Both the position numbers and the translations under genes were made by a program. Below, piece by piece: positions 19,427 to 47,810 of a stretch of 64,000 bases of DNA (within the stretch, counting starts at the first letter, position 1; every line of letters begins with the position of its first letter). Source of the stretch: a bacterium (GTDB lineage: Bacteria; Electryoneota; Electryoneia; Electryoneales; Electryoneaceae); the NCBI GenBank assembly GCA_963675295.2, contig CAXXKJ010000001.1, forward strand, positions 160,001 through 224,000. The letters run 5' to 3'. Under the pieces are notes generated by a model. That model was not told the DNA's origin and searched no databases. It was given only the letters and a program-made list of their open reading frames with translations.

Positions 19427-21865
19427 TTAGCGAACCAGCATCACCTTCTGCGTCGCGTTCATCTGACCAGGAACCGTCGCACGCACGAAATACAGGCCGC
19501 TGGCGAGGTTCGAAGCGTCGAAGGTCAACGTGTGCTCACCAGCGACATACCGCCCGTTCGCCAGTTCGGCAACCTGCTGGCCCATCACGTTGAACACGCT
19601 CACCGCCAGATCAGACGCTTCCGGCAATGCGACACGGATCGTCGTGCTCGGGTTGAACGGGTTCGGGTACGCCGCGCCCAGCTCATACTCGTCCGGCAGA
19701 CTGACGATTTCAATTGCTTCGTCCGCGAACGCCAGGTCTGTGGTTGTCCACTCGTCAAGGTTCATCGTACCGGCGGCAGTACCTTCCTTGTAGAAGACGA
19801 ATGTGCCCGTGATATACATCGTCGGATAACCCACTCGACCAATAAACGTGTACGCGCCAGACGGAGCAGATGCCGGCACCTGCGTCATGCTCGTCAAGGT
19901 GACGTTCATGAACGGGGACAGGGTGAAGTACTGCTGGGAAATCGGACCGTATTCCGTGCCATTCGGCAACTCAACCGCGGTCCAGTACATCACATTCGGG
20001 TATGAGCCCGGCAGGTTGCTGACCAGGTGTACGTCGTACGTCAACGTTCCACCGTTCGCCGGGATGAAGTGGTCCTGCGGTATCAATGTCAGCGTCGCCG
20101 GAGCGTTCGAGAACGGTTCGACGTCCACATCTTCACTCGGTTGCAGCTGGCAAACGCCGCTATAGGTATCAACCGTACCACGGAACGTTACCCAGTCACC
20201 AGCAGAATACATCGTCAAGTCAATGTTGGCATCGCCGTACATGCGGATCGTTGCTTCGCCACTACCGTCATCGATCATCAGGTTGTACGTGTCACCCGGC
20301 TGGCCTGGATCGGTCATCAGCTCGCCGGTCAATTCCGCCCAGACGCCTTCGTATGGAACCTGATCGTCGAAATCACCCGTGTCCCACGTCATCGGCTGCG
20401 GCAACGGATTGCCAGTGGAGAGAATGTCGAACGTCCAGTTGACCAGCTCGGTGGTGTCGTAGTACTGCGCGACTTCCGCGTACACCGTCACCGCCGTGCC
20501 ACGATCCAGACCAATACCGAGGTTCGGGTCGCTGGCATACATCATGATGCCGTAGCCACTGTTGTCCTGGACATAGACGTCGACGTACCCAGTGTGCACC
20601 GTGTTGTTACCCTGGGTGATGACACCCATCACCTGAACCAGGTCGCCCGGCTGATAGGTACCGTTCTGAATTTCCTGGATGGTCGCAACCGCGTACGGAG
20701 ACGGTGTCCAGTCGTCGTACCAGTCACCGATCGAACCGAACATGTCTTCGACTGTCAGCGTGGTTTCATCCGCCAACTCGATGAAATAGTTCGCACCCAT
20801 GCCGGCTTCATTGTCGTAACCGTTGGCGCCGTACTTGTAGGTGAAGTTAAAGCTGGAACCGGCGGGGAGGGTGTACTGTGCGGTGAACAGGCTGTCACCC
20901 GCGACAGCGTCCGCGCCCTGGCCGTCGTCCAGTAGTGTGACGTTGCCGTATGCACCCGGAGTCCAGGTCCAGCTGTCCCACGGACCGGTAACGATGAACC
21001 ATTCGATTTCGTCTTCCATCACTCCCGGAATGCCGACATCGTTGTGCTTCAGGATCGCCGGACGGCCATCCAGCACAAACGTGACCAGCATGTCATCGCT
21101 CAAGCCGCCGATGTTATCCGAGAAGTACACCGGATCCAGCGTCACATCGAGGTCGCCGTCGTTGCCATCATCCGGCTCGTCGCCGGTCGGAATAAACTGA
21201 CGATTGCCACCTGGGGGCTCTTCCCACTCGACTGGATCAGACTGGTTGTTGCCCACGTCAATGACAAACTTGTATTCCAACGCCGTGCCGACTTCCAGGC
21301 TGGTGAAGTTGACGGTAATCGAATAGGTTTCGTCGCCATTGGCGGTCAAAGCCGTGTAGCCACCCCAGTTACCGAGTTCAGCTGCACCACCGCGGATGAT
21401 CATCGCGTCAACGTTCGGATCAAACGTACCGTTGTCGATCATCACGCTCATGTCAACCGTGAAATCGATTTCGTACGGGTACGACACGCCAGCCGGCTCT
21501 TCGTTGTTGAAGTACACTACATCCAACGTGATCGGCTCGAAGCCCACCGTCAACGGACGATTGTCGATGTTGTCTTCCCAGATGTCGCCGGTGTTGACGA
21601 TCACGAACTTGTAGCCGTACGCACCATTTTCAATCTCGAACGTACCCCACCAGACGTTGTCCACATCCAGCGTGAGCATTTCTTCGTTGCCGCTCCAGCC
21701 ATTGAAGTCACCGCGAACGACCACATCCTGCACGTTCGGGTCAAAGGTGCCGTTGTCGATCTGCACCGACATGTCCACCTGGAATGTGACTGGTGCGGCC
21801 ATCGCGGCACTCACACCAAATAGCAAAAATAGCGCGAACAATGTGACAATCTTCACGTTTTGCAT
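19427..21865 (-). CDS. Secreted protein: three CBM20-like modules, OB-fold region, Ig adaptor and T9SS type A-like CTD
   Basis: Repeats of F.VDMSV..DNGTFDP...RG...W...YKFVI, then ATIQEIQ...YVQD. Ends AYPNPFNP...LASGLYF...KVMLVR. Confidence 0.85.
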   Translation of the reverse strand: MQNVKIVTLFALFLLFGVSAAMAAPVTFQVDMSVQIDNGTFDPNVQDVVVRGDFNGWSGNEEMLTLDVDNVWWGTFEIENGAYGYKFVIVNTGDIWEDNIDNRPLTVGFEPITLDVVYFNNEEPAGVSYPYEIDFTVDMSVMIDNGTFDPNVDAMIIRGGAAELGNWGGYTALTANGDETYSITVNFTSLEVGTALEYKFVIDVGNNQSDPVEWEEPPGGNRQFIPTGDEPDDGNDGDLDVTLDPVYFSDNIGGLSDDMLVTFVLDGRPAILKHNDVGIPGVMEDEIEWFIVTGPWDSWTWTPGAYGNVTLLDDGQGADAVAGDSLFTAQYTLPAGSSFNFTYKYGANGYDNEAGMGANYFIELADETTLTVEDMFGSIGDWYDDWTPSPYAVATIQEIQNGTYQPGDLVQVMGVITQGNNTVHTGYVDVYVQDNSGYGIMMYASDPNLGIGLDRGTAVTVYAEVAQYYDTTELVNWTFDILSTGNPLPQPMTWDTGDFDDQVPYEGVWAELTGELMTDPGQPGDTYNLMIDDGSGEATIRMYGDANIDLTMYSAGDWVTFRGTVDTYSGVCQLQPSEDVDVEPFSNAPATLTLIPQDHFIPANGGTLTYDVHLVSNLPGSYPNVMYWTAVELPNGTEYGPISQQYFTLSPFMNVTLTSMTQVPASAPSGAYTFIGRVGYPTMYITGTFVFYKEGTAAGTMNLDEWTTTDLAFADEAIEIVSLPDEYELGAAYPNPFNPSTTIRVALPEASDLAVSVFNVMGQQVAELANGRYVAGEHTLTFDASNLASGLYFVRATVPGQMNATQKVMLVR

Positions 21866-22120: not shown

Positions 22121-24454
22121 TTAGCGAACCAGCATCACCTTCTGCGTCTGGTTCAGCTGACCCGGAACCATCGCGCGGATGAAATACAGGCCGCTGGCGA
22201 GGTTCGAAGCGTCGAAGGTCATCGTGTGACGGCCGACGGCATAATTTCCATCCGCAAGCGTCGTCACCAACTGGCCGGTGATGTTGAACACGTTCACCGT
22301 CAGCTCCGCCGCTTCCGGCAACGTCACCGCGAGTGTCGTCGTCGGGTTGAACGGGTTCGGGTACGCGTTCTCAAGCGCGAATTCAGTCGGCAGGATTTCC
22401 GATTCCTGGCCGCTGGCGGCAAACCGGATATCCGAGCTGACCCATTCGTCCGGATTCACTTCGTACACCGGCTTCTCGAATTCAGCACTGCGATCAAACG
22501 CGACACCCCGTTCGTACGGCGCGCACGGCATACCCATGGCGTCACGGTAGCCTTCTTCCAGCTCACCATTACCAACCGGACGGTAGAATCCATCGGTCGC
22601 GCCAAAGGTCGCACCGATTTCGTCGAACCACGTCTCGTTGGTGTACGCAGCCGTCATCCCGACATACCCATCGGCGTAGGTGCCATCGTTGAAGCTGCCT
22701 TCGTAGTTGCCGTTGATCGTGATGTCAACGTCAGCGCCGTTGGCAGAAATCTCCAGCGTATTCACTGCCCCGACACCGGTGTTGATCGCGGTTCCGGTCG
22801 TCCAGCCGATGATGTTTGTTGGTGAACCATCCGTATACACCCACGCCGAATAACTGGTGTTTGAGATGTACACGGCGTACCCATTGTAGTCGCTGTCATT
22901 GGTGCCGTTGCCACGGAACAGCATCCCTACCGAGTAACCCTGCGACACTTCATACATGAAAGTCGTGGACGCGGTAAAGTTGTCGAAGCCTTGTGTCATG
23001 TACGTGCCGGAACCCCACTCGGACAAGTTGCCGGTTACGTCGATCTTGCAGTAGCCATCTTCGATCGCGTACGACCCTGGACCGACAAAGAAGTCGAAGC
23101 CCTGTGCAAGGCCGTCATCGAAGTCTTCGTACATGCCGGCGCCGACCTTCGCGAACGGGAAGCTATCCGTCTTCTGCAGATCGGGACGGTTCGGCATGCC
23201 CGCGATCGCGGTCATCGTGTACGCCCCTTCCGGGGCACCGCCCGGAACGTACAGCATCGCGTCATCCCACGTGTAGTTCATGTACGGCATCAGGTTGAAC
23301 TCAGCGTTGTTGATCCGTGGGATCGTACCGCCGCCGGGCAGGGTGACGAATGTCTGGTACTTGAAACCGTACCCGGTGTTCGACGAGTTGTTGATCAGGT
23401 GGATGTCATACACCACATCACCACCAGTCTGGGGTATCGCCGTCACTTCCGGCGTCAGGAAGAAGTCGATCACAATCCATTCCACCGACACGGGACCGGC
23501 CGGATCAGATTCGCCCTCATCGTAGTAAGCCGTGACTTCGTACTCGTACGTTCCGGCTGCGGGAAGCGTGTCGACATACATTTCGTCCGTCGTCGTGTCG
23601 ATCAGCTCGCCGTCCCGGTAAATCTTGTAGTACAGGAACTCATCGGTGGCGTTTTCGCTGAACCGGTCAAACACACGCACACCGTCCGCAACCGGCATCG
23701 GCGCGAGAATCGGGTTGTGCGCGTCGTCAAAGTACCCGGCAACCGGTGTACCCTGAGCGGCGGGTTCCGTCGGGACGCGATCCACCGCACCCACAGTGCA
23801 GAAGACGTCGTCGTACCAGGTCACGTTGTACGCTTCGATCACACCGACATACCCTGACGGATAGGTCGCATCCGTGAAACTGTTGTGGTACGTGCCGTTG
23901 ATGTACAAATCGTACGTGCCGCCGGAACCGACAACTTCCATCGTGTTGACGGCGCCTTGGCCGGTGTTGATCCCGGTGCCCGTGGTCCAGGTAATGACGT
24001 TGGACGCCGAACCGGCGGTGTACTTCCACACTGAATAGCTGGTGTCGGAGATGTACATACCGTAGCCCTGGAAATCCTCATCGCGCGGGCCGTTCACGCA
24101 CCACATCACACCGCGTGAACTGGTCTGGCCGTCCTGGATCTCGAAGGTGCTGGTCAGCGTGAAGTTGTCGAACTCCATCGCTTCATACGCACCCGTCTGC
24201 CACGTGTTGGACGCTGAACCATCCAGCTTGGCGTAGCTGTCCTCGAAGGTCAGCGCATCCACAATCCAGTTCCAGCTGTCTCCCGGATCTGTGTCGAAGG
24301 TCTCGTTCAACCCCGCTGAAGGCTCATTCCAGGTTAGCGTCACTTCACCATCCAGACCGAGATCGGCTTCGAGGCCGTAAGGTGGATAAACTTGAGCGGA
24401 AGCGACTGCTGCGAGAAGAAACAGCACGAGGAATGAGACAGATAAGCGTTTCAT
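22121..24454 (-). CDS. Secreted modular protein: FN3 with inserted L1, Ig adaptor, L2, CTD (family member A)
   Basis: Signal peptide ASA-Q and two related beta-sandwich domains resembling DUF1080/LamG. Also YKIYRDG..YEVTAYYDEGES (FN3) and a YPNPFNP CTD. Confidence 0.85.
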   Translation of the reverse strand: MKRLSVSFLVLFLLAAVASAQVYPPYGLEADLGLDGEVTLTWNEPSAGLNETFDTDPGDSWNWIVDALTFEDSYAKLDGSASNTWQTGAYEAMEFDNFTLTSTFEIQDGQTSSRGVMWCVNGPRDEDFQGYGMYISDTSYSVWKYTAGSASNVITWTTGTGINTGQGAVNTMEVVGSGGTYDLYINGTYHNSFTDATYPSGYVGVIEAYNVTWYDDVFCTVGAVDRVPTEPAAQGTPVAGYFDDAHNPILAPMPVADGVRVFDRFSENATDEFLYYKIYRDGELIDTTTDEMYVDTLPAAGTYEYEVTAYYDEGESDPAGPVSVEWIVIDFFLTPEVTAIPQTGGDVVYDIHLINNSSNTGYGFKYQTFVTLPGGGTIPRINNAEFNLMPYMNYTWDDAMLYVPGGAPEGAYTMTAIAGMPNRPDLQKTDSFPFAKVGAGMYEDFDDGLAQGFDFFVGPGSYAIEDGYCKIDVTGNLSEWGSGTYMTQGFDNFTASTTFMYEVSQGYSVGMLFRGNGTNDSDYNGYAVYISNTSYSAWVYTDGSPTNIIGWTTGTAINTGVGAVNTLEISANGADVDITINGNYEGSFNDGTYADGYVGMTAAYTNETWFDEIGATFGATDGFYRPVGNGELEEGYRDAMGMPCAPYERGVAFDRSAEFEKPVYEVNPDEWVSSDIRFAASGQESEILPTEFALENAYPNPFNPTTTLAVTLPEAAELTVNVFNITGQLVTTLADGNYAVGRHTMTFDASNLASGLYFIRAMVPGQLNQTQKVMLVR

Positions 24455-24766
24455 GATTACCCCCTTAAGAAGAGAAAATGAATTCATAGGCATATTTGCC
24501 CTTGTTGCTTAAGGTAGAGGCGAAACAGTCAATCTTCAATAATCAGGTGTGATTTTTTCGATTTTCTGCACGTGGCGAGCACGTTTCTCCGATACAGATA
24601 AACTTTTGTTGTCGTTCTACTTAGTGGCAATTGACGAAGAATCCTGCGCAGAGCATCGGAGTGGAGAACACTGACTACGATTCTCCCGGGACAAACATCG
24701 CCCGGAAATCCGCAGACTCCCGGGCGTGCTCTACTTCCTTCAGATCAATCCTTCTGATCGTCGAGA

Positions 24767-27094
24767 TCAGCGGACCAGCATCACCTTCTGCGTCTGGTTC
24801 AGCTGACCCGGAACCGTCGCCCGCACGAAGTACAGACCGCTGGCGAGGTTCGAGGCGTCGAAGGTCAACGTGTGCCGTCCGGCGGTGTAATTCCCGTCCG
24901 CAAGCGTCGTCACCAGCTGGCCGGCAACGTTGTAAACGTTCACCGTCAACTCCGCCGCTTCCGGCAGCGTTACCGCGAGCGTTGTGCTCGGGTTGAACGG
25001 GTTCGGGTACGCATTTTCCAGCGCGAACTCGTTCGGCAGACTCACCGCACCCTGGCTGTCCGTCATGATCTCACGGCCGGAACCAACCCATTCTTCCGGA
25101 TCGATCGTGAAGTCCGGCGCGACAAATTCGCTGCTGCGATCAAACGCAACACCGCGTTCGTACGGAGCGCACGGCACACCCATCGGATCACGGTACCCGG
25201 CTTCCAGGTCGCCGTTGCCAACCGGACGGTAGAAGCCATCGGTCGCGCCGAACGTTGCGCCGATGTCATCAAACCACGATTCGTTCGTATACGCGGTCGT
25301 CATGCCGACATAACCATCCGCATACGTGGCATCGTTGAAGCTGCCTTCGTAGTTGCCGTTGATCGTGATGTCAACATCCGCGCCGTTGGCCGAAATCTCC
25401 AGCGTGTTCACTGCACCGACACCGGTGTTGATCGCGGTGCCCGTGGTCCAACCAATCAGGTTGGTCGGGGCGCCAGCAGTATACACCCATGCCGAATAGC
25501 TGGTGTTGGAGATGTAAACCGCATAGCCGTTGTAGTCGCCATCCTGCGGACCATTACCACGGAACAGCATACCACAGGAATAGCCTTGGGTGACTTCATA
25601 CATGAAGGTCGTGGACGCCGTGAAGTTATCGAACGCGACACCCATGTAGGTGCCGGAACCCCATTCGGCGGCACTGACCTGGTCGAACTTGCAGTAGCCA
25701 TCGCTGATCTCGTAGGTCCCGTCCCCGGTGTAGAATTCGAAGCCCTGCGCTTCACCATCTTCGAAATCTTCATACAGACCAGCACCGACCTTCTGGAACG
25801 GGAAGCCATCCCACAGCTGATACATCGGTTCGATCGCACAACCGACCATCGCATTCAGCTCGTAAGCCCCTTCCGGTGCACCCGCCGGGACATAAAGCAT
25901 CATGTCGTACAGCGTGTAGTTCATGTAGGGGACGAGCGTGAACGGAATGTTGTCGATCCGCGGAATCTGGCATCCGCCCGGCGTGGTCACATACGTCTGG
26001 TAGCGCATACCGTACGCCATGGTCGGGACCGTGCTGATCAGCGTGGCGTCATACATGATCTCGCCACCGCCTTGAGGTACCGTCGTCACGTACGGAGTCA
26101 GGTAGAACATGAAGGCCACCCAGTCCACCATCACCGGTCCGGCCGGGTCGGATTCGCCTTCATCATAGTACGCCGTCACTTCGTACGCATACTCACCCGG
26201 CGAAGGCAGGTAGTCGACATACATCTCGTCGGTCGGAGTTCCAACCAGGTTTCCGTCCCGGTACACCTTGTAATACAGGAAGGCATCCGTCTGCGGTTCG
26301 CCAAAGCGGTCAAACACACGCACCCCGTCCGCCACCGGCAGCGGCGCGTCAATCGGGTTGTGCATGTCATCGAAATACCCGGCAACCGGAGCACCCTGAG
26401 CAGCCGGAGCCGGAACGGCATCCACCGCACCCATGGTGCAGTAAATGTCATCGTACCAGGTCACGTTGTACGCTTCGATCACACCAACATACCCCTGCGG
26501 GTAGGTGCCGTCGGTGAAGCTGTTGTGATAGGTACCGTTGATGTACAGGTCGAACGTGCCACCCGAAGCCTGAATTTCCATCGAGTTCACAGCGCCCTGA
26601 CCGGTGTTGATGCCAGTACCGGTAGACCACGAAATCACGCTGGACGCCGAGCCGGCGGTGTACTTCCACACCGAATAGCTGGTGCCGGAAATGTACATGC
26701 CATAGCCCTGGAAGTCAGCGTCACGCGGACCATTGGTGCACCACATGAAACCACGGGAACCGGTCGACGTGTCCTGAATTTCAAACGTGCCGCTCAGCGT
26801 GAAGTTGTCGAATTCCATCCCTTCGTACGCGCCTGTCTGCCAGCTGGTCGTGCCCGTTCCGTCGAGCTTGGCATAACCATCCGAGAACGAAAGGTTATTC
26901 ACCAACCAGTTCCAGGCCGAGCCCGGGTCGACATCGAATGTTTCCGCAAGACCCGCCGACGGCTCATTCCACGTCAACGTCACTTCGCCATTCAAACCGA
27001 GATTCGCTTCCAACCCATACGGTGGATACACCTGGGCAGATGCGATCGCTCCCAGAACCAGGAGCATCAGAACAATGACGGATAAGCGTTTCAT
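24767..27094 (-). CDS. Secreted modular protein: FN3 with inserted L1, Ig, L2, CTD (member B)
   Basis: Collinear paralog of 22121-24454 with GAGGGG RBS. Confidence 0.85.
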   Translation of the reverse strand: MKRLSVIVLMLLVLGAIASAQVYPPYGLEANLGLNGEVTLTWNEPSAGLAETFDVDPGSAWNWLVNNLSFSDGYAKLDGTGTTSWQTGAYEGMEFDNFTLSGTFEIQDTSTGSRGFMWCTNGPRDADFQGYGMYISGTSYSVWKYTAGSASSVISWSTGTGINTGQGAVNSMEIQASGGTFDLYINGTYHNSFTDGTYPQGYVGVIEAYNVTWYDDIYCTMGAVDAVPAPAAQGAPVAGYFDDMHNPIDAPLPVADGVRVFDRFGEPQTDAFLYYKVYRDGNLVGTPTDEMYVDYLPSPGEYAYEVTAYYDEGESDPAGPVMVDWVAFMFYLTPYVTTVPQGGGEIMYDATLISTVPTMAYGMRYQTYVTTPGGCQIPRIDNIPFTLVPYMNYTLYDMMLYVPAGAPEGAYELNAMVGCAIEPMYQLWDGFPFQKVGAGLYEDFEDGEAQGFEFYTGDGTYEISDGYCKFDQVSAAEWGSGTYMGVAFDNFTASTTFMYEVTQGYSCGMLFRGNGPQDGDYNGYAVYISNTSYSAWVYTAGAPTNLIGWTTGTAINTGVGAVNTLEISANGADVDITINGNYEGSFNDATYADGYVGMTTAYTNESWFDDIGATFGATDGFYRPVGNGDLEAGYRDPMGVPCAPYERGVAFDRSSEFVAPDFTIDPEEWVGSGREIMTDSQGAVSLPNEFALENAYPNPFNPSTTLAVTLPEAAELTVNVYNVAGQLVTTLADGNYTAGRHTLTFDASNLASGLYFVRATVPGQLNQTQKVMLVR

Positions 27095-27562
27095 GATTTT
27101 CCCCCTCGTGGAAAAATGAAGTGTGGACAGGGTATACACCCCCCTTGCCGAACAAGGTAGATGGAAACTGATCATTCATCAATATTTTATTCCGTATTAA
27201 ACCATTTAACAGAGGTTTACACCATAAAAACAGTCTGATTCTAAGCTATTAAATTGAATAAACTTGGCGTAAATCTTATAATACGTTTATTTTGCATCAT
27301 TAGAACTATTGCAACATAAGAAGGATTATGAGCTTACTACAGGACGCTTCAGGGTCGATAAACGCTTACTGTACGAATATCAAGACGTTGCCCGTCAACC
27401 GGTAGGCTCACAATCAGGGCTTGTCCAGTGCTCTCCGTCTCCAGGGGGTTGAGAAACTGGCTGCCCCAAACTCCGTTCACAACTCAGAGATGCACAACTC
27501 CACACGAGATGATTCGTGCGACGGGACTGGCTGGCTGGAGATCCCGGCAGGATGAGACACAG

Positions 27563-27594
27563 AAAACGCCCAGGTGGAAAAACCACCCGGGCGT
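27563..27594 (-). terminator. Rho-independent terminator
   Basis: ACGCCCAGGTGG-AAAAA-CCACCCGGGCGT with a flanking A-run on the + strand. Confidence 0.65.
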
Positions 27595-27633
27595 CATCGA
27601 AGCATTACAGGCTAAGCCTGTAGTGTGTCGAGA

Positions 27634-29958
27634 TTAGCGGACCAGCATGACCTTCTGGGTCTGATCCATCTGACCCGGAACCGTGGCGCGGATGAAGTAC
27701 AGGCCGCTGGCCAGGCTCGAGGCGTCGAAGGTCATCGTGTGACGACCAGCGCTGTAGTCGCCATTGGCAACCGTCGCAACCAACTGACCGGTGACGTTGT
27801 ACACGTTCACCTTCAGGTCGGCCGCTTCCGGAAGCGTGACGGCGAAGCTGGTGCTCGGGTTGAACGGGTTCGGATACGCGTTCTCAAGCGCGAACTCGGT
27901 CGGAACGTTGACAGAGCCACCGTTGGAAGCAATACCGAAGCTGTTGTCGCCAGCCCAGTCTTCACGGACGAATTCGAAGGTCGACTCAACGAATTCACCA
28001 CTGCGGTCAAACGCAACACCGCGATCATACGGCGCGGTCGGCTGACCCATGTGGTCACGATACATCGGTTCCAGCTCACCAAGGTGCGCCGGACCAATGG
28101 CGTTCGGGGCGCTGAAGGTCGCACCGATTTCGTCGAACCAGGTTTCGTTGGTGTAGGCAGTCGCCATACCAACATAACCCGTCGCGTACGTCGCATCGGT
28201 GAAGCTACCCTGGTAGTTGCCGTTGATCGTGATGTCGAACGAGGAGCCGCTCGCATCGATCTGCAGCGTGTTGATCGCGCCGACGCCGGTGTTGATGCCA
28301 ACGCCCGTGGTCCAACCAATGATGTTGGTCGGGGCGCCAGCGGTGTAGACCCACGCCGAGTAGCTGGTGTTGGAAATGTAAACAGCGTAACCAGCATAGT
28401 CACCGTCCTGCGGGCCATTGCCACGGAACAGCATACCAACCGAGTAACCCTGCGTCACAGCATACTCAAAGGTGGTGCTGGCACTGAAGTTATCGAAGTT
28501 CATCGCGGTGTAAGAGCCGGAGCCCCACTCAGCCGCAAGGACCTGGTCAAACTTGCAGTAGCCACCATCGATCATGTACGAACCGTCGCCAACGTAAAAT
28601 TCGAAGCCCGGGGCGGTCGCGCCACCAAAGCCTTCAAACAGACCAGCGCCGACCTTCGCGAAGTCGAAGTTGTCCGTAACCTGAAGGTTCGGGTTGTTCG
28701 GAACACCAGCGATACCCTGGAGGTTGTACGCGCCTTCCGGAGCATAGCTCGGGACGGTCAACGAGAAGTCATACGCGGTGAAGTTCATGTACGGAACGAG
28801 GGTGAACGGAATGTTGTCCACCGGACCCACGACGTTGCTGTTCGGCAGCGTCACGAAGGTCTGATAACGAAGACCCGGGAACTGAGCCGGAATCGTGCTG
28901 ACGAGAGACGCGTCATAAACGACGTCGCCACCACCCTGCGGAACCGTCGTCACGGACGGATCGAGGGTCAGCATGACATACGTCCAGGTCACTTCAACCG
29001 GACCGGCCGGAGTGGATTCGCCTTCATCGTAGTACGCGGTAACTTCGTACGAGTAGGTACCTTCGCCCGGCAGGTTGTCGACGAACATTTCAGTCGTCGG
29101 TTCACCAACCAGGTTGCCATCACGGTAGACCTTGTAGTTCAGGAACTCATCAACCTGCGGCTCACCGTAACGGTCGAAGACGCGCACGCCTTCTGCCATC
29201 GGCATCGGGGAGTCAATCGGGTTGTGGGCATCGTCGAAGTAACCTTCAACCGGAGTACCCTGAGCAGCCGGAGCCGGAACGGCATCAACCGCACCCATGG
29301 TGCAGAAGATTTCGTCGTACCAGGTCACGTTGTAGGCTTCGATCACGCCGACATAACCCTGCGGATAGCTGGCGTCGGTGAAGCTGTTGTGATAGGTACC
29401 ATTGATGTACAGGTCGTACGTGCCGCCCGAACCCTGAATTTCCATCGAGTTCACAGCGCCCTGACCGACGTTGATGCCGGTACCGGTGGACCAGGAGATA
29501 ATCGCCGAAGCCGTGCCGTTGGTGTACTTCCACACCGAATAGCTGGTGTTGGAAACGTACATCCCATAGCCGTTGAAGTCAGCGTCACGCGGACCATTGG
29601 TGCACCACATGAAACCACGGGAACCCGTCGAGGTATCCTGGATTTCAAACGTGCCGCTCAGCGTGAAGTTGTCAAACTCCATCGCTTCGTAGGCACCTGT
29701 CTGCCAGCTGGTCGTGCCCGTTCCGTCGAGCTTCGCATAGCCGTCAGAGAACGAAAGGTTATTCACCAACCAGTTCCAGGAAGCGCCCGGATCTGCATCA
29801 AACGTTTCCGCCAAGCCAGCCGACGGAGCATTCCACGTCAAGGTGACTTCGCCACCATTGCCGAGATCCGCTTCAAGGCCGTAAGGCGGATAAACCTGCG
29901 CCGACGCCGCAAACGCCAGCACGAATACTGCGAGAAGAATACTGGACAGGTACTTCAT
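27634..29958 (-). CDS. Secreted modular protein: FN3 with inserted L1, Ig, L2, CTD (member C)
   Basis: Collinear paralog. AAGGGGG RBS before MKYLSSILL. Confidence 0.85.
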   Translation of the reverse strand: MKYLSSILLAVFVLAFAASAQVYPPYGLEADLGNGGEVTLTWNAPSAGLAETFDADPGASWNWLVNNLSFSDGYAKLDGTGTTSWQTGAYEAMEFDNFTLSGTFEIQDTSTGSRGFMWCTNGPRDADFNGYGMYVSNTSYSVWKYTNGTASAIISWSTGTGINVGQGAVNSMEIQGSGGTYDLYINGTYHNSFTDASYPQGYVGVIEAYNVTWYDEIFCTMGAVDAVPAPAAQGTPVEGYFDDAHNPIDSPMPMAEGVRVFDRYGEPQVDEFLNYKVYRDGNLVGEPTTEMFVDNLPGEGTYSYEVTAYYDEGESTPAGPVEVTWTYVMLTLDPSVTTVPQGGGDVVYDASLVSTIPAQFPGLRYQTFVTLPNSNVVGPVDNIPFTLVPYMNFTAYDFSLTVPSYAPEGAYNLQGIAGVPNNPNLQVTDNFDFAKVGAGLFEGFGGATAPGFEFYVGDGSYMIDGGYCKFDQVLAAEWGSGSYTAMNFDNFSASTTFEYAVTQGYSVGMLFRGNGPQDGDYAGYAVYISNTSYSAWVYTAGAPTNIIGWTTGVGINTGVGAINTLQIDASGSSFDITINGNYQGSFTDATYATGYVGMATAYTNETWFDEIGATFSAPNAIGPAHLGELEPMYRDHMGQPTAPYDRGVAFDRSGEFVESTFEFVREDWAGDNSFGIASNGGSVNVPTEFALENAYPNPFNPSTSFAVTLPEAADLKVNVYNVTGQLVATVANGDYSAGRHTMTFDASSLASGLYFIRATVPGQMDQTQKVMLVR

Positions 29959-30502
29959 ACTACCCCCTTGTGTGTTGGACCTACCTGTTGAGCCAATAAA
30001 TCCAATGCCTGCGAAAGATAGTTCTCCGGCACCGATCTGCAAAACCCCCTTTAGCGTTTTGTCGATTTTTTTGAGGCACTCGGGAGACGGACAACCGCCT
30101 GCATTGTGGGGTTTCAAACCCCTGCTGTAACCCCGCTCATAGCCTCAAGAAGGGAATTCGCATGAAACCACGAACGTGCCCAAACCCGGCGGAAAACAAG
30201 CAGTTCCAATCCCTCTCCGCAAACTAAAAAATGCAGCCGATCCGTCGAGTTGTCTCGTCACCAGACAATACCTGGAGAGCCATGCGAGTGAGATTTAGGA
30301 GGGGCTAACTTTTAGGGCGTCCGAATTTCAGCACCCGAATCCATAATTCTATCCGTTCGCGGCCTTCTATTAGCATGGTTTCCACCGGTCAATTTCCCTG
30401 CCCGCTTTCCGCAGTTCTGGCAGAGGCAGACGTCAAACAAATGCGCCGTCCAGATGAATTCTTCACCCGTACGGCGCATGTTAGTCGATTGGAAACAAAA
30501 GC

Positions 30503-31789
30503 TTACTGGACAAGCATGACTTTTTGTGTCTTAATCATCCGGCCGGGCACAGCCGCCTGCACGAAATACAGCCCGCTCGACAATCCCTGAGCCGCGAAGG
30601 AATACGTGTGCATTCCTGCCGCTACCTGACTGTTCACCAGCTCCGAAACCCGCTGTCCAGCCACATTGTAAACGGAAATCGTCACTTCTGACGTTTCCGG
30701 CAGTGCGACACGAATCGAGGTCTGTGCGTTAAACGGATTCGGGTACACCGGCAACAAGGCGAAACCGTCCGGAAGCGACTCTACCGGCGGTTCCGTCGCT
30801 GCGATCCGCAGTGCGCTTCCGTTCCAGTTGTCAACCCCGTCTGCTGCCACGCCGGTCTTCGTGAAGGTAAACGAATCCTCCAGGTACGGACCATTCATGT
30901 AGCCGACACGGGCGGTGAAGGTGTAGATGCCGTCCGGTGCCAGCGACGGAATGTTCTGCGTCATCCCGGTCTGGGTGACATTCATGTACGGCATCAGATC
31001 GAAATGCATCAGCGTTAACGGACCAAACACCTGCGCATTCGGTAGCGTGACCTCGGTCCAGTATGCAACGTTTGGATACGACGCGCCGATGAGGCTGACC
31101 AGCGAAACGTCATAAACCACATTGCCGCCGTTCGGCGGGATAGTGGTACTGGTGGGGGTAAGCGTCAACTCAATCGGATCCGGTTCGAGATCCTGCTCGA
31201 AAGTCAGGTCATCGAAGCAGCAGATTGAGCCAGTGAAGTCGAGCACGACCTCGGCGATATCTTCACCCTCAACGTTCAACGTCTGCAGCGAAGATTGTCC
31301 GGTGATCGAATAGCTGCCGATGAGGCTGCCATTGGAATCGAAGGCCGTTGCCGTAATAACACCGGACGAGTTGTGTCCAGCCAGAATGGTCAACGAAAGA
31401 ATCGGCGGGTCGAACAACATCGTTTCCGGCGGATAGACACCGGCGCCGGTGTTGAACGCGAGGAAATTCGGCGACGAATAATTGCTGATCCCGAAATTGC
31501 CCGACTCGTTCAGGACCTCGCCCTGGCCTTGGAACAACACACCCTGGTCGAGGTATTCATCCGTCAGCGGTATTTGATCATTGAATAGCCCCGGCGCATC
31601 CAGGTCATCAAAGTCGATGAACTCTTCGTCAATGGTTGGCGTATCCGGTGGTGATTGATACGGGGTTGAGCCATCGGCAACTGGTGTGTCCGACGGCATG
31701 CCGTTCAGAATGTAGGTGTCTGCGTACGTTGCCCCGGCAGCCAGCAACATCACCGCACACAACATCAGCAGGAATCCGTAGCGCTTCAT
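30503..31789 (-). CDS. Secreted modular protein: N-module, Ig, CTD (member D)
   Basis: Signal peptide, FIDFDDLDAPGLFNDQIPLT module, Ig adaptor and YPNPFNA CTD. Confidence 0.85.
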   Translation of the reverse strand: MKRYGFLLMLCAVMLLAAGATYADTYILNGMPSDTPVADGSTPYQSPPDTPTIDEEFIDFDDLDAPGLFNDQIPLTDEYLDQGVLFQGQGEVLNESGNFGISNYSSPNFLAFNTGAGVYPPETMLFDPPILSLTILAGHNSSGVITATAFDSNGSLIGSYSITGQSSLQTLNVEGEDIAEVVLDFTGSICCFDDLTFEQDLEPDPIELTLTPTSTTIPPNGGNVVYDVSLVSLIGASYPNVAYWTEVTLPNAQVFGPLTLMHFDLMPYMNVTQTGMTQNIPSLAPDGIYTFTARVGYMNGPYLEDSFTFTKTGVAADGVDNWNGSALRIAATEPPVESLPDGFALLPVYPNPFNAQTSIRVALPETSEVTISVYNVAGQRVSELVNSQVAAGMHTYSFAAQGLSSGLYFVQAAVPGRMIKTQKVMLVQ

Positions 31790-32046
31790 ACTTCCTCCCC
31801 TTGAATAGAACATGTGGTACAACGTGTACAAAAGGACGGGCATCGGTGTCAAATCTTTCGTCAACGCAAGTGAGTGACCGAATCAGAAGGAGGTCTATGC
31901 ACGGTGAACCGTCATTGGCAACGTCCGGTCGCCATGGTAACGCTTTCAATAAAGTACGACATGAAGCCTTGAATCCAGCAAGAATCACAATGTTTGATAG
32001 AATTTCCGGCTCGGGAGCATGCACCATCGCCAGGATAATCGGCAGT

Positions 32047-32081
32047 AAAAAAGGGGCATGTGATCGAGTCACATGCCCCTT
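32047..32081 (-). terminator. Rho-independent terminator
   Basis: AAAAAAGGGGCATGTGA-TCGAG-TCACATGCCCCTT. Confidence 0.85.
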
Positions 32082-32107
32082 GGGTATGAACCATCAATCG
32101 GGGAAGC

Positions 32108-34075
32108 TTAGCGAACCAGCATCACCTTCTGGGTCTGGTTCAGCTGGCCCGGAACCATCGCGCGGATGAAGTACAGGCCGCTGGCGAGGTTCGAAGCGTC
32201 GAAGGTCATCGTGTGACGGCCGGCGGTGTAATCACCGTTGGCGACCGACGCGACCAACTGACCAGCGACGTTGTACACGTTCACCGTCAGGTCAGACGCT
32301 TCCGGCAGGGTAACCGCGAAGCTGGTGCTCGGGTTGAACGGGTTCGGGTACGCGGTTTCAAGCGCGAACTCGGTCGGAACGTTCACAGCCGAACCACCGT
32401 TGGAGGCGGTACCGAAGCTGCTGCTGCCAATCCACTCTTCCGGGTGGAATTCGTAGCTGTCCGTGGCGAACTCAGCGCTGCGGTCAAACGCAACACCGCG
32501 ATCGTACGGCGCGCACTCAATACCCATGTGGTCACGATAGACCGATTCGATCTCGCCAAGGTGCGCCGGGCCGATGGAGTTCGGGGCCGGGGCGTTGCTG
32601 GCGCCGACTTCGTCGAACCAGGATTCGTTGGTGTACGCCGTCACGATACCAACATAACCGCTGGCATACGTACCGTCGCTGAAGCTGCCTTCGTAGTTGC
32701 CGTTGATGGTGATGTCAACGGTGCCGCCGCTGGCATCGATCTGCAGGGTGTTGACAGCGCCAACGCCCGTGTTGATCGCGGTACCAGTCGTCCAGCCGAT
32801 GAGGTTGGTCGGGGCGCCAGCCGTGTAGACCCACGCGGAGTAGCTGGTGTTGGAGATGTAGACAGCGTAACCATTGTAGTCGCCATCCTGCGGGCCATCA
32901 CCGCGGAAGAGCATACCGCAGGAATAACCGTTCGTGACTTCATACATGAAGGTCGTGGACGCACTGAAATTGCCGAAGGACGAGCTGGTATAGGAACCGG
33001 AACCCCAGTCCGTCGTGTTGCCGACCACATCGATCTTGCAGTAGCCACCATCAATCGAGTACGAGCCCGGGCCGACGAAGAAGTCCATGCCCTGAGCCAT
33101 GCCATCGTTGAAGTCTTCGAACCAACCCGCACCCTGCTTGCTGAACGGGAAGCTGTCCGAAACCTGCTGCGGCGGGCTGTTCGGCACACCAGCCTTGGCT
33201 TCAAACATGTAGTTGCCGGCCGGGGCGGAACCCGGAACCGAAACCGTCATGCCCGTGACCTGAAGGTTCATGTACGGGAACAGGGTGAACGGAATGTTGT
33301 CGATCGGACCAAAGACCTGCTGGTTCGGCAGGGTCGCGAAGGTCTGATAACGGAGACCCGGAATCTGAGCCGGGATCGTGCTGACGAGCGACGCATCATA
33401 CACCACGTTGCCGCCACCCATCGGGACCGTGTCCACAACCGGGGTCAACGTCAGGGTCACCGGGTCGCCCGGGCCGTTGTCGAACCACAGGTCGTCGAAG
33501 CACGCCACGTTGCCGGTGAAATCGAGAACCACGCTCGCGCAGCCGTTCATGCCGCTCAGCGACATGGTCTGCAACGCCGAGGTGCCGGTGATCGTCGTGC
33601 TACCCAGCACGCCGCCACCCGCATTGTACGCGGTCATCGTGATCGTACCGGACGAACTGTGACCGGCGAGGATCGAAATGTCACTGATTTCCGGGTTGAA
33701 CAGCATCGTCTCCGGCGGGTTTGCACCAACGCCAGTGTTGAACGCGAGGAAGTTCGGCGACGAGAAGTTGCTGATGCCGAAGCCGCCGCTCTCGTTCAAG
33801 ACTTCGCCAAGACCCTGGAAGATCACGCCCTGCGCGGCGTATTCATTGGTCAGCGGAACCTGGTCGTTGAACAGGCCAGGCGCGGTCATGTCATCAAAGT
33901 TGATGAACTCATCGTCCGCGATCGGACCATCTTCCGGGGCCACATACGTGTTGCTGACGTCGATCGCCGGGGTGTCCGACGGAACGCCATTCACGGTAAA
34001 CGATTCGGCGAGGACCGGACTGGCGGCCAACGCCATCGCGACAAACGACGCGAATACCTTACTCAGGTGCTTCAT
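32108..34075 (-). CDS. Secreted modular protein: N-module, Ig, L2, CTD (member E)
   Basis: N-module shared with D and F; L2 shared with A-C; YPNPFNP CTD. Confidence 0.85.
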   Translation of the reverse strand: MKHLSKVFASFVAMALAASPVLAESFTVNGVPSDTPAIDVSNTYVAPEDGPIADDEFINFDDMTAPGLFNDQVPLTNEYAAQGVIFQGLGEVLNESGGFGISNFSSPNFLAFNTGVGANPPETMLFNPEISDISILAGHSSSGTITMTAYNAGGGVLGSTTITGTSALQTMSLSGMNGCASVVLDFTGNVACFDDLWFDNGPGDPVTLTLTPVVDTVPMGGGNVVYDASLVSTIPAQIPGLRYQTFATLPNQQVFGPIDNIPFTLFPYMNLQVTGMTVSVPGSAPAGNYMFEAKAGVPNSPPQQVSDSFPFSKQGAGWFEDFNDGMAQGMDFFVGPGSYSIDGGYCKIDVVGNTTDWGSGSYTSSSFGNFSASTTFMYEVTNGYSCGMLFRGDGPQDGDYNGYAVYISNTSYSAWVYTAGAPTNLIGWTTGTAINTGVGAVNTLQIDASGGTVDITINGNYEGSFSDGTYASGYVGIVTAYTNESWFDEVGASNAPAPNSIGPAHLGEIESVYRDHMGIECAPYDRGVAFDRSAEFATDSYEFHPEEWIGSSSFGTASNGGSAVNVPTEFALETAYPNPFNPSTSFAVTLPEASDLTVNVYNVAGQLVASVANGDYTAGRHTMTFDASNLASGLYFIRAMVPGQLNQTQKVMLVR

Positions 34076-34509
34076 ACTACCTCCCCTTGCGGTTCTTCTG
34101 TGATGTGAAACCTGATTGGAATCACGGTCTCCTGATTTCCCATGCCAGAGAAACTGGAGCATCGAAACGGTTGTCGCTTCTGATCTCGAATCGAAGTGAG
34201 CAGTGAAACTACCAGTCGGGGTAAGCAGTGCGTCGAAGCGGTATGAATCTTAGGAACGACTAACAAGATAATCGGGCGGAACAGCAATGCAAGTAGAAAC
34301 TAGCCCTTTCGAATTTTTCTTTCTCTGGAGTCTTGTTAGGTTACTGTCAATTGAAGCTAATAATGACGAATCCTCACACTTCAGCTGAATGGTCAGCAGT
34401 CAGGTTGACTATCAAACAGGTTGTCCTATACATAAGGAGGGAACAAGGGGGGACGCGTGAACCAGGCACGCGTCCCCATGCAGGACATGACATCAACAAA
34501 TGCTGTCTA

Positions 34510-36459
34510 TTAACGGACCAGCATCACCTTCTGGGTCTGATCCATCTGACCCGGAACCGTGGCGCGGACGAAGTACAGGCCGCTGGCCAGGCTCGAGGCG
34601 TCGAAGGTCATCGTGTGACGGCCAGCGCTGTAGTCGCCATTGGCAACCGTCGCAACCAGCTGGCCAGTGACGTTGTACACGTTCACCGTCAGATCCGACG
34701 TCTGCGGCAGGCTCACCGCGAACGTCGTGGTCGGGTTGAACGGGTTCGGATACGCATTCTCCAGCGCGAACTCGGTCGGAACATTGACCGAACCCTCGTT
34801 GGATGCAATACCGAAGCTGCTGCCGGCCCAATCTTCCGGATTGAACTGATAGTCACTCGGAGAATACCGGTCAAACACCATCACACCGTCCGCAACCGGC
34901 ATCGGCGCGTCGATCGGGTTGTGCATGTCGTCGAAGTACCCGTCGACCGGTGTGCCCTGCGCCGCCGGAGCGCCCGGCACCATGTCAGCCGCGCCGTAGG
35001 AGCAGAAGATATTGTCGTACCACGTCACGTTGTACGCTTCGATCACGCCGACATACCCCTGCGGATAAGACGCGTCGGTGAAGCTGTTGTGGTACGTTCC
35101 GTTGATGTACAGGTCGTACGTGCCGCCCGAACCCTGGACTTCCATCGAGTTCACAGCGCCCATACCGGTGTTGATGCCGGTACCTGTGGCCCAGGAGATG
35201 ATACTTGAGGCCGAGCCAGCCGTGTACTTCCACACCGAGTAGCTGGTGTTGGAGACGTACATGCCGTAGCCATTGAAATCGGTGTCACGTGGACCATTGG
35301 TGCACCACATCACACCACGGGAGCTGGACTGGCTGTCCTGAATCTCGAACGTGCTGGTGAGTGTGAAGTTGTCAAACTCCATCGCCTCGTACGCACCTGT
35401 CTGCCAGCTGGTGCCGCTCGAACCGTCGAGCTTCGCATAGCCACCCGAGAACGAAAGGTCATCCACGATCCAGTTCCAAGCTGTGCCAGGATCGGTGTTG
35501 AACTCTTCCGCCAGGCCACCGCCACCGAGCTTGACGAACGGGAATGAATCCGTCACCTGCATGTTCGGGTTGTTCGGAACACCCGCAATCGCTTCGAGGA
35601 TGTAACCGCCTGTGGGGGCACCACCCGGAACCGCAATCGTCCGGTTGTAGATCGTGACGTCCATGTACGGCGTCAGCGTAAACGGAATGTTTTCGATCGG
35701 ACCGTAGACCACGCTGTTCGGCAGCGTCGCAAAGGTCTGATACCGCAGACCGGACATCATGGCCGGAATCGTGCTCACCAGCGACACATCGTAGATAACG
35801 TCGCCACCCGTCTCCGGGACCGTCGTCTGAGTCGGGTTCAGCGTCAACGTCACCGGATCGCCAGGACCGTTCACGAAGAACAGGTCGTCAAAGCAGCAAA
35901 CCGTACCGCTGAAATCGAGGACCACCTCGACAATGTCGTTTCCGGTGATGCTAAGTTCCTGCATCGCCGTTGTACCCGTCACAGACGTGTAACCAACCTG
36001 CGTGCCGCCGGAATTGTACGCGGTCATTTCAATAAATACCGACGAGGAGTGACCACCGAGAATGGAGATTTCCGTGATCGGCGGATCAAACAGCAAGGTC
36101 TCCGGAGGGTTCGCGCCAACGCCAGTGTTAAAGGCAAGGAAATTCGGCGCGGAATACCCTGTCACGCTGAAGCCCCCACCGTCATTCAACACTTCACCAA
36201 GGCCTTGAAACACCACGCCCAGGTCTTCATACTCCGTGGTCAGCGGAATCTGGTCGTTGAACAAACTCGGTGCATCGAGGTCGTCAAAGTCAATGAACAC
36301 ATCGTCATCGGTGATCGGCCCGGTGTTCGGCGCGATATAGTTGTTGACCATATCAACGGCGGGTGTGTCGGACACCACACCATTGACCACATACGTGTCC
36401 GCATTGGCCGCAAACACGACCACGAGACACAGGACGAACAGCAAACTCAGGCGCTTCAT
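34510..36459 (-). CDS. Secreted modular protein: N-module, Ig, L1, CTD (member F)
   Basis: N-module as in D and E. The L1 domain (WQTGAYEAMEFDNFTL...YVGVIEAYNVTWYD) sits in the post-Ig slot. Confidence 0.85.
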   Translation of the reverse strand: MKRLSLLFVLCLVVVFAANADTYVVNGVVSDTPAVDMVNNYIAPNTGPITDDDVFIDFDDLDAPSLFNDQIPLTTEYEDLGVVFQGLGEVLNDGGGFSVTGYSAPNFLAFNTGVGANPPETLLFDPPITEISILGGHSSSVFIEMTAYNSGGTQVGYTSVTGTTAMQELSITGNDIVEVVLDFSGTVCCFDDLFFVNGPGDPVTLTLNPTQTTVPETGGDVIYDVSLVSTIPAMMSGLRYQTFATLPNSVVYGPIENIPFTLTPYMDVTIYNRTIAVPGGAPTGGYILEAIAGVPNNPNMQVTDSFPFVKLGGGGLAEEFNTDPGTAWNWIVDDLSFSGGYAKLDGSSGTSWQTGAYEAMEFDNFTLTSTFEIQDSQSSSRGVMWCTNGPRDTDFNGYGMYVSNTSYSVWKYTAGSASSIISWATGTGINTGMGAVNSMEVQGSGGTYDLYINGTYHNSFTDASYPQGYVGVIEAYNVTWYDNIFCSYGAADMVPGAPAAQGTPVDGYFDDMHNPIDAPMPVADGVMVFDRYSPSDYQFNPEDWAGSSFGIASNEGSVNVPTEFALENAYPNPFNPTTTFAVSLPQTSDLTVNVYNVTGQLVATVANGDYSAGRHTMTFDASSLASGLYFVRATVPGQMDQTQKVMLVR

Positions 36460-36836
36460 ACTACCCCCCTTGGTTGAAGCTGACTGTACCCGGTTACGAG
36501 ACTGCAAACGAAATGAATACAACAGGTTTAAAATCGTAAGTTGCTATTTCGTGTCGGATGAAGTCTGTTGAGGTCACAGGAGAGCTGTTCGTGGTAAACC
36601 ATCGGCCCCTTTTCCGACTAGTTTACACAAAGATAGGTAAATAAGATAACACCCTAACTATTTGAGACAAGTGTATTTGCGGGATATTTTTTGTTTTCGG
36701 GGCTCTCGAGCCAGTGATCCAAGCTGTTGTTTTGTATAGAAAAAGGTGAACCACGTTGTGGTCCACCCATAAAGTTGACCGGGGTCGTCCGAGATCGGCC
36801 CCCACGCCAGTGCACACTTTACACTGGGTCCGATCC

Positions 36837-38591: not shown

Positions 38592-38714
38592 CAAAACCCC
38601 CATATTGATTTACTACGGTCAGCTATTGGCTGGCCGGGCACGCAAGAAACCCGGACAGCAGATTCGATATATAAATAACAAATCATCGTCTGGGCAAAAG
38701 CGTCGTTATCGTTA

Positions 38715-40493: not shown

Positions 40494-40725
40494 GATTTCC
40501 CCCAATTGCATATACCGTGGATACCGGAATACCGGATGATAGACTCCAATAAAACTAACCTACTCCCTCCTGGCAGCATGGTCAAGCGTTCCGGTCACGG
40601 CAAGCAATCTCGACCGCTGGAAAGAAAACCGGTTGTTCAACACTCCTAACTTTTCGTATCCTTTACCCCGGTTCTGCATCCAACGACCAGACAGCCGCTC
40701 AAACATCCAACACGGAGAGCCCCCC

Positions 40726-42687: not shown

Positions 42688-42821
42688 TCGTCACTCGGTT
42701 CCCGAGACGATTACCTGAATTTCCATGAAAACATTGCCCGGCACCATGCCGGGTTTTATGTTTAGCTCTATCAATGAGACCGTCACAGGAGTTTATCGAC
42801 ATGTGTACTGTGGAGGTTCGC

Positions 42822-45119: not shown

Positions 45120-45132
45120 CGCGACAGAACGT

Positions 45133-45253
45133 AAAAGAAGCCAAAGACGCAACGGACGCAAAAGATGCAAAAGAAGTAACAGACAGGAACAGAAAGTAAC
45201 GGATAGGAAAAGACAGGAAAAGACAGGGGACAGCCACACCTCGCGACTGTCCC
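45133..45253 (+). repeat. Purine-rich tandem array (five 9-mers then five 10-mers, consensus AA[AC]AGA[CT]AG[GT]) capped by a GGGACAG..CTGTCCC hairpin
   Basis: aaaagaagc caaagacgc aacggacgc aaaagatgc aaaagaagt aacagacagg aacagaaagt aacggatagg aaaagacagg aaaagacagg. Confidence 0.8.
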
Positions 45254-45278
45254 TGTGAATTGTTGGCCGGTGGATCAT

Positions 45279-47762: not shown

Positions 47763-47770
47763 GCAACCAG

Positions 47771-47796: not shown

Positions 47797-47810
47797 GAAG
47801 GAATGCAAAA

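Follow-up and report, generated by a model that had tools for sequence, protein, structure and literature searches.

Six adjacent T9SS cargo genes in an Electryoneota bacterium probably form an old mosaic family grown by tandem duplication and a few module exchanges

Six adjacent genes on the minus strand (A to F, 22121-36459) of an uncultured environmental bacterium of the family Electryoneaceae (phylum Electryoneota) encode paralogous proteins assembled from a small set of common modules. They lie in a 64,000-nt stretch of contig CAXXKJ010000001.1 (assembly GCA_963675295.2, positions 160,001 to 224,000 of the forward strand), referred to below as the window, whose numbering is used throughout unless another contig is named. 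The initial annotation, made from the sequence alone, described the locus as a two-slot domain-shuffling system that generates surface-protein variants. The modules are indeed exchangeable and were brought together by recombination, as seen in four heads, one domain swap in gene F and one gene conversion in gene B, but an active system that generates variants is not supported. The array is probably an old mosaic family of paralogous type IX secretion system (T9SS) cargo genes, which grew by tandem duplication and a few recombinations and has since been stable, and it represents ordinary domain shuffling, not programmed variation.

The architectures were determined by pairwise BLASTP, MAFFT alignments and motif-anchored boundaries, all of which agree on six paralogues with the layouts that had first been listed. 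Genes A, B and C encode a signal peptide (SP), a putative FN3 domain divided into FN3a and FN3b by a domain termed L1, an immunoglobulin-like domain (Ig), a second L domain (L2), a tail and a C-terminal domain (CTD), in the order SP-FN3a-[L1]-FN3b-Ig-[L2]-tail-CTD. The other three genes carry a different head, N, and read SP-N-Ig-tail-CTD (D), SP-N-Ig-L2-tail-CTD (E) and SP-N-Ig-L1-tail-CTD (F). Between genes, BLASTP E-values of the modules range from 1e-15 to 0, a degree of sharing far above chance, and the DNA repeat families of the region are 60-90% identical. L1 and L2 are DUF1080/CBM66-like units of ~219 aa, 45% identical, which can be aligned end to end, linker and closing G-V-x-F-D-R motif included; protein identity is 78-88% among L1 copies, 70-84% among L2 copies and 41-47% between the two types. 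The L unit of F (34864..35523, minus strand) stands after the Ig, where A, B, C and E have an L2, and is nevertheless of the L1 type, as had been proposed: it shares 80-82% identity with the L1 copies nested in FN3 in A, B and C, compared with 42-46% with any L2, retains the PAAQGTPV.GYFDD.HNPI linker, and falls within the L1 clade.

The six open reading frames (ORFs) span 22121-24493, 24767-27175, 27634-30117, 30503-31864, 32108-34162 and 34510-36522, and the alignment places the likely true starts at conserved MK... codons at 24454, 27094, 29958, 31789, 34075 and 36459, the last of which, in F, is also the end coordinate of the initial annotation. Each MK start is preceded at 5-6 bases by an AAGGGGG-type ribosome site, and a G+C-rich hairpin lies behind every gene (a scan found five strong ones; those of D and F were recognized by eye). 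With a ribosome site, signal peptide and hairpin terminator of its own, each gene appears to be a separate and complete expression unit; a sigma-70 promoter scan was uninformative (three matches, compared with a mean of 9.5 in shuffled sequences).

Gene A (22121..24454, minus strand, as are all six; 777 aa from the MK start) consists of SP 24395-24454, FN3a 24317-24394, L1 23660-24316, FN3b 23474-23659, Ig 23144-23473, L2 22487-23143, tail 22391-22486 and CTD 22124-22390. Gene B (24767..27094), with the same architecture, contains FN3a 26957-27034, L1 26303-26956, FN3b 26117-26302, Ig 25787-26116, L2 25133-25786, tail 25037-25132 and CTD 24770-25036, and gene C (27634..29958) contains FN3a 29821-29898, L1 29167-29820, FN3b 28981-29166, Ig 28651-28980, L2 28000-28650, tail 27904-27999 and CTD 27637-27903. 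Among the genes with the N head, D (30503..31789) consists of N 31199-31723, Ig 30854-31198, tail 30773-30853 and CTD 30506-30772, E (32108..34075) of N 33482-34009, Ig 33134-33481, L2 32477-33133, tail 32378-32476 and CTD 32111-32377, and F (34510..36459) of N 35875-36402, Ig 35524-35874, the L1 unit given above, tail 34780-34863 and CTD 34513-34779.

The stability of these architectures is seen in G001, the genome of a different species of the same genus, in which a neighbouring gene, Z, and the genes A, C, D, E and F are syntenic and have identical architectures. The locus is collinear between the two species at 81-87% nucleotide identity, save for a clean one-gene gap at B. No orthologue of B was found in G001 (91% complete), G002 or G003, the best G001 match to the FN3b-Ig part of B (64%) being the orthologue of A. 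In the L tree, the L2 of B pairs with the branch that unites A and its G001 orthologue; it thus diverged before the A orthologues split, so that B predates the species split and was probably lost in G001. Apart from this presence or absence of B, the architectures are stable under purifying selection, with synonymous divergence (dS) of 0.03-0.95 and ratios of nonsynonymous to synonymous divergence (dN/dS) of 0.02-0.33 for orthologous modules of at least 60 aa. Among the paralogues, module identity does not exceed 90.6% at the nucleotide level, the longest exact match is 51 nt, and in run-length (GENECONV-like) tests 3 of 61 comparisons pass correction, with tracts of 17-29 nt and no long tracts.

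Short-read contigs from two samples (X6 and X8) match the assembly without differences wherever junctions are bridged, which is the case for L2-Ig-FN3b-L1 in A, B and C and for N-Ig-L1 in F (35107-36897). In addition, a contig of a 90%-identical relative in a sediment metagenome run spans the L2-Ig-N part of E. Apparent 'joints' in some short-read contigs were considered as rearrangements and rejected, since their sides are 20-37 nt long and lie inside CTD repeats, in a genome with 416 CTD genes. Among close relatives, then, the sister species has the same architectures without B, and populations are represented by short-read contigs only.

The CTD of all six genes is a T9SS type-A sorting domain, matching TIGR04183 at 39.3-43.0 bits (cut-off 23) and, at the extreme C-terminus of 6/6 proteins, PF18962 at 36.5-44.8 bits (cut-off 27); gene A, for example, scores 39.3 bits to TIGR04183 (cut-off 23) and 40.8 bits to PF18962, along with 43.3 bits to PF06439 in two stretches. 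By inspection, each protein begins with a signal peptide made of MK(R/Y/H), a hydrophobic stretch and an A-x-A-like site (e.g. ...AAVASA, followed by QVYPP). Of the T9SS machinery, the genome encodes the PorU sortase (NF033707, 708.7 bits, cut-off 420) and SprA (TIGR04189, 830.1 bits, cut-off 200). The six genes are accordingly annotated as predicted, independently expressed T9SS type-A cargo, whose products would be secreted or surface proteins. Profile hidden Markov models (HMMs) of the modules, built from the six genes, were used to scan 9422 six-frame ORFs of the 4.81-Mb genome (two contigs), giving 416 ORFs with the CTD, 246 with the Ig and 198 with both; the CTD-bearing ORFs total 873 kb, ~18% of the genome. 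Since Ig and CTD occur together in 198 ORFs, they form a stock tail, and 'Ig-short linker-CTD' is a general export tail of the secretome of this genome, with nothing special to the array.

What sets five of the six genes apart is the length of the linker within this tail. The median distance from Ig to CTD is 34.5 aa (5-95% range 27-55 aa), and values of 249-252 aa are confined to A, B, C, E and F. The plain linkers of related genes have the pattern F.F.K.G...FNPEDW...LP..FA, and exactly these residues border the L unit in the five genes, indicating that the unit was spliced into a pre-existing Ig-CTD linker. A single L copy, of the L2 lineage, was inserted between K-x-G-A-G and F-x-P-E-D/E-W, giving rise to an Ig-L2-CTD tail of single origin.

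The trees of the individual modules point to old exchange. In the L tree, built from 34 rows after the omission of eight distant nested copies from this genome, one clade (support 100/99) unites the nested paralogue C2:4364866 and its G001 orthologue with 13 of the 15 L units that follow an Ig, namely those of A, B, C and E, of three G001 orthologues and of six G002 and G003 genes. The remaining two, from F and its G001 orthologue, are placed inside the L1 clade, beside the nested L1 of B and C (87/92). In the Ig tree (24 rows), the 13 Ig domains followed by L and the 11 followed by the CTD separate at 99/99, indicating that the Ig-L2-CTD tail arose once. An early grouping of the Ig of C with those of E and F, drawn from identities, was given up, the tree placing it with A and B (89/84). 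In the N tree, E and F are sisters (92/97), so that F descends from an N-Ig-L2-CTD gene in which L2 was later replaced.

These trees also bear on gene D. The initial annotation had taken the slot after the Ig to be empty (D), filled by L2 or filled by L1; the two filled states stand, whereas the empty one does not. The Ig of D belongs with those directly followed by the CTD (99/99), forcing it together with E and F is rejected by the approximately unbiased (AU) test (p-AU 0.0045), and its CTD is 52-56% identical to those of the other five genes. D is thus an N head on a plain tail from a different lineage, and not an 'E with an empty slot'.

The sequence of F can be followed through the exchange. 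It is E-like up to K-x-G-(A/G)-G, L1-like from L-A-E-x-F to V-F-D-R-Y, and E/C-like again in the tail ...Y-x-F-x-P-E-D-W, this tail being 64-68% identical to those of E and C and 26% identical to that of D. Both junctions coincide with the conserved first and last motifs of the L unit, with 5-8 bases identical between donor-like and recipient-like sequences at each. The proposal that Ig and CTD sequences served as recombination anchors is contradicted by these positions, at least for the L swap. The G001 orthologue of F is 90% identical over residues 1-649 and has the same junctions, and the dS between the L1 unit of F and its counterparts in B and C (0.71-0.75) matches the value for the F orthologue pair (0.73), which together date the swap to about the species split or before it. 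After the duplication that gave E and F, the L2 of F was thus exchanged once for an L1, precisely where the homologous ends of the unit lie. As the nested and post-Ig contexts are not homologous outside the unit, an exchange could not extend further, and this may be why the swap looks module-exact. Such swaps would be rare homeologous or microhomology-mediated events between neighbouring paralogues.

A further exchange affects B, the L1 domain of which was overwritten from C. The old gene-conversion tract (26384..26977, minus strand; residues 67-264 of the 802-aa ORF) covers roughly the L1 jelly roll, and 107 of its 139 informative sites are C-like, compared with 188 of 459 outside it, a contrast reached by 0/200 permutations in a maximum chi-square test and recovered with the G001 genes as parents. 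Within the tract, the sliding nucleotide identity is 86-94% to C and its G001 orthologue and 65-83% to A, and the dS of 0.38-0.47 is near the orthologue level. Tandem duplication plus a few such old recombination events would account for the growth of the family.

The L unit is a ConA-like jelly roll with a ~45-aa return linker, running from G-L-x-E-x-F to F-D-R. PF06439 is matched at 35.5-43.3 bits in A, B and C when summed over their two L domains, and in a protein atlas L1 lies beside PF06439 clusters at 0.95. In the AlphaFold model of A (mean predicted local confidence, pLDDT, 67.6; domains about 60-90; both L linkers below 50), both L domains are predicted as ConA-like jelly rolls. The modelled L2 (residues 447-620) superimposes on the CBM66 structure 4azz_A with Z 21.3 and a root-mean-square deviation of 2.1 A over 159 of 165 residues at 13% identity, and on 4b1m_A with a Foldseek TM score of 0.77; the modelled L1 (residues 46-223) resembles the 3-keto-glycoside eliminase/hydratase 9fbe_A (Z 16.1), the DUF1080 structure 3hbk (Z 15.7) and a 1,3-1,4-beta-glucanase (Z 16.8). 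PDB sequence searches with profiles of N, Ig and L gave best E-values of 0.15 and 0.29 and none for L (0.51 for L1 alone). The six proteins are thus probably glycan-binding, cell-surface or secreted proteins, to judge by the modelled fold, and different combinations of head and L unit would give differing specificities or avidities.

In this genome, 23 L copies occur in 20 ORFs, 18 of them nested (then followed by FN3b and Ig) and five post-Ig, the latter in A, B, C, E and F. The form nested in a split FN3 is the ancestral one: full-length FN3[L] is present in 4/4 genomes of the genus and, beyond it, in four further genera of its family and in a single case in a different family, and an L match at E<=1e-10 is found in 16 of 79 genomes of the phylum. 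Among the genomes compared, the post-Ig L was found only in this genus; it also occurs in 11 of 15 database proteins from a search of 5.8 billion sequences, all of which carry an FN3[L], N, X or Y head followed by Ig-L-CTD. Scans of metagenome_contigs with the L alignment and with the Ig-L2 region of C gave no matches. Seven FN3[L]-Ig-CTD genes on the other contig (C2:4355784-4370872) make up another tandem cluster, which is conserved in G001 and holds the nearest nested relatives of L1 (C2:4366752 and C2:4369154) and of L2 (C2:4364866). In another genus of the family, a 2295-aa open frame (G004 C18:11684-14872) contains three consecutive full-length FN3[L] units.

The label FN3 for the domain split by L1 is weakly supported by sequence. 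FN3b alone matches positions 28-83 of the Pfam fn3 model at E 0.011 (A) and 0.0049 (C), with 16.4-17.5 bits (below the cut-off of 25), while an unsplit paralogous FN3 (L022 ORF), the C-terminal part of which is 61% identical to the FN3b of A, scores 26.2 bits. The model of A places two strands (26-32 and 37-43) before L1 and five (273-326, pLDDT 82-91) after it, which would add up to the FN3 strand count. A literature search for domains nested in FN3 found no relevant report among the matches listed.

The Ig domain has neither a Pfam family nor a PDB sequence match, and the same is true of N, for which an hhalign comparison with L gave a probability of 1.3%. N is present in four ORFs of the genome and represents a large family of extracellular domains that is not catalogued, with 878 cluster representatives at E<=0.001 and 584 at E<=1e-10; the Pfam families found in the 30 members scanned do not include one naming N. 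Its members stand on their own, form tandem triplets that close with a dockerin-like end (P0006), alternate with Ig in an N-Ig-N-Ig-CTD layout (P0002), are joined to a PEP-CTERM anchor, or lie within S8 and M4 proteases. Within the genus, in G002, G003 and database proteins, the Ig-L2-CTD tail stands behind four heads, FN3[L], N, X and Y, of which X is ~550 aa with CarboxypepD_reg and, according to a source annotation, an InhA-like MAM domain, and Y is ~250 aa. X heads of ~550 aa are also found in the present genome on plain Ig-CTD tails (C2:1045662-1048055 and C2:4055097-4057535, 52% and 46% identity). Since X is on plain tails here and on the L tail in G002 and G003, three head families exist both with and without the L tail.

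An account of the six architectures as assembly chimeras, from collapsed or mis-joined repeats, would draw on the repeat-rich nature of the region, where short-read contigs break at the CTD and other repeats. It has next to no probability: the assembly consists of two contigs, the architectures and junctions recur in an independent genome (G001), the independent short-read contigs match without differences, and database proteins from other sources show the same layouts, so that chimeras are effectively excluded. For gene F, a second, independent insertion, with L1 entering the linker of a gene with the plain N-Ig-CTD layout seen in D, would be in keeping with the earlier entry of the L unit, at least once, into foreign contexts (the FN3 loop and the Ig-CTD linker), and the low nucleotide identity of L1 and L2 (~56%) speaks against homologous replacement. 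Such an insertion is highly improbable given that the Ig of F lies inside the 'Ig then L' clade, its N is sister to that of E, its tail resembles those of E and C and not that of D, and L1 entered between the same two residues as L2.

That the array goes on recombining its modules through Ig and CTD anchors, with variation between cells or strains, is very unlikely, although several observations could be cited for it. Modules were exchanged more than once, one sister species has a gene fewer than the other, paralogues share exact matches of 25-51 nt that could seed recombination, and the gingipain and HagA modules of Porphyromonas gingivalis vary in this manner between strains (PMC5266723). 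The last 150 nt of the F CTD (34513..34662, minus strand) are, moreover, 97% identical to C 27637-27786. Against this, five of the six architectures are kept with identical junctions in the congeneric G001, at the dS and dN/dS values given above, which comes close to the outcome that the initial annotation had named as refuting it, though G001 is not a distant relative; the swap junctions lie outside Ig and CTD, long identical tracts are missing, and contigs from two samples show the same arrangement wherever it is bridged. All six copies are full genes, with no silent donor cassettes at the locus; no recombinase, integrase or reverse transcriptase was detected among the 31 other ORFs of the window (Pfam E<=1e-5; the rest of the genome was not searched); and there are no inverted-repeat pairs of at least 14 nt within 800 nt of each other, save two small palindromes. 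The near-identical repeats, silent cassettes, local recombinase or reverse transcriptase and inverted repeats of programmed variation systems (cassette conversion, shufflons and other invertible elements, diversity-generating retroelements) were therefore not found here, and the variant-generating role assigned by the initial annotation is not supported. A related idea, itself doubtful, is that the L unit is a self-contained, insertion-tolerant lectin cassette moving by microhomology-mediated template switching, with the Ig-L-CTD tail and the array as a standing recombination substrate and strains that differ in their head-module pairs. The hints for it are the presence or absence of B, the 97% identity of the C and F CTD ends, a patch in a G002 gene described below, and the three head families with and without the L tail; if true, it would make the array an environmental counterpart of gingipain/HagA adhesin variation.

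Several points weigh against an old and since stable mosaic family. B is present in only one of the sister species, and reads were available only as short-read contigs, in which rare structural variants are invisible. The C and F CTD ends are 97% identical here and 95% in G001, with F 93% identical to its own orthologue, a difference that involves few bases and is not significant in the run-length test; it is a hint that some exchange may have followed speciation, with concerted evolution of the sorting-domain end. In G002, the post-Ig L of an X-Ig-L-CTD gene (L017:5364-8390) is of the L2 type with an L1-like patch of ~12 residues at its N-terminal edge (51% identity to L1 and 27% to L2), possibly the trace of a partial conversion of L2 by L1 in that species. 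For the F swap, the ~56% identity of L1 and L2 is too low for ordinary RecA-driven conversion, and microhomology or template switching would be at least as likely as a RecA-type event. Names were given to the clade groups when the first trees were already known, the long-branch rows N449, G2_X1002 and G3_X1010 were left out of the Ig tree, and the census HMMs, made from these six genes, favour close relatives. A single L falls below the PF06439 cut-off of 26.8 (21.7 bits in E, 23.7 bits in F), and binding or processing of carbohydrate by the L domains is suggested by the fold alone.

The old mosaic family is embedded in a longer series of cargo genes, Z-A-B-C-D-E-F-G-H (19427-40511); no other same-strand run of CTD genes in this genome reaches its length of nine. 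On one side, the flanking gene Z (19427..21865, minus strand) encodes a CBM20/CBM48-like head (CBM_20, 41.3 bits) followed by Ig and CTD modules in common with the six genes (PF18962, 41 bits). On the other side, G and H (36837..40511, minus strand) encode FG-GAP heads (FG-GAP_3, 100.7 and 122.3 bits) followed by an Ig-like domain and a CTD matching PF18962. Arginine-rich open frames run antisense to B, C and E on the plus strand (24872-27085, 27625-29991 and 32213-34108; 737, 788 and 631 aa); considered as genes, they have no Pfam match and are most likely artefacts of GC-rich coding DNA. An Rfam search of 19000-41000 gave zero matches. Beyond the array, the window contains a multihaem cytochrome with MtrC/MtrF-like domains (13418-15295, minus strand), an acetate-CoA ligase (40633-42687, plus strand), and at least six further T9SS cargo genes (42774-59577) with BNR/sortilin-like, S15 peptidase, lamin-tail, LVIVD repeat (two genes) and FG-GAP domains. 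The third-best database relative of the ligase, at 85% identity, carries the label Calditrichaeota bacterium and those ranked after it are Chloroflexota, a weak hint at the phylum; a literature search on type IX secretion in Calditrichaeota gave no papers.

The closest described case is the combinatorial adhesin modularity of the gingipains and HagA of P. gingivalis, the likeness being one of layout and not of domain families. For RgpA, Kgp and HagA, that source speaks of 'combinatorial modularity' of modules and of gene conversion between paralogues, and these proteins are likewise T9SS cargo in which a head is followed by an Ig fold, interchangeable beta-sandwich modules and a CTD (PMC5266723). 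By contrast, the modules of the present array are DUF1080/CBM66-like jelly rolls, with no CAD or DUF2436 Pfam match; each slot holds one module and not an array of them; the variation is seen between species; and the organism is an uncultured environmental bacterium. A tandem of an Ig-superfamily domain and a CTD, with the Ig-like spacer directly before the sorting domain and a short flexible linker, is described for RgpB (and for Kgp and PPAD) in another report (PMC4804311). The same layout is found in the 198 ORFs described above, with their median linker of 34.5 aa; the Ig domain here differs in having no Pfam model or PDB sequence match, and five genes differ in holding a 219-aa unit in the linker. 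The L unit shares the jelly-roll fold with CBM66 of Bacillus subtilis SacC and with DUF1080/3-keto-glycoside enzymes (PF06439), one of which, the DUF1080 protein BT2157, hydrolyses 3-keto-trehalose (PMC8121099). It differs from them in its low sequence identity (13-15%), in scoring below the Pfam cut-off as a single domain, and in its conserved ~45-aa return linker and its placement within FN3 or the Ig-CTD linker.

The array reveals no new mechanism of programmed variation, and offers instead a clean, datable case of surface proteins put together piece by piece. The same cassette lies nested in FN3 in some places and in the Ig-CTD linker in others, a tail of single origin is reused behind four heads, and a whole-domain replacement ends at the limits of homology. 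An insert of ~220 aa separates Ig from CTD and has persisted under purifying selection. The analysis also defines three uncatalogued modules (the pre-CTD Ig, N, and the L unit with its linker), which helps the annotation of a lineage with ~18% of its genome coding for T9SS cargo.

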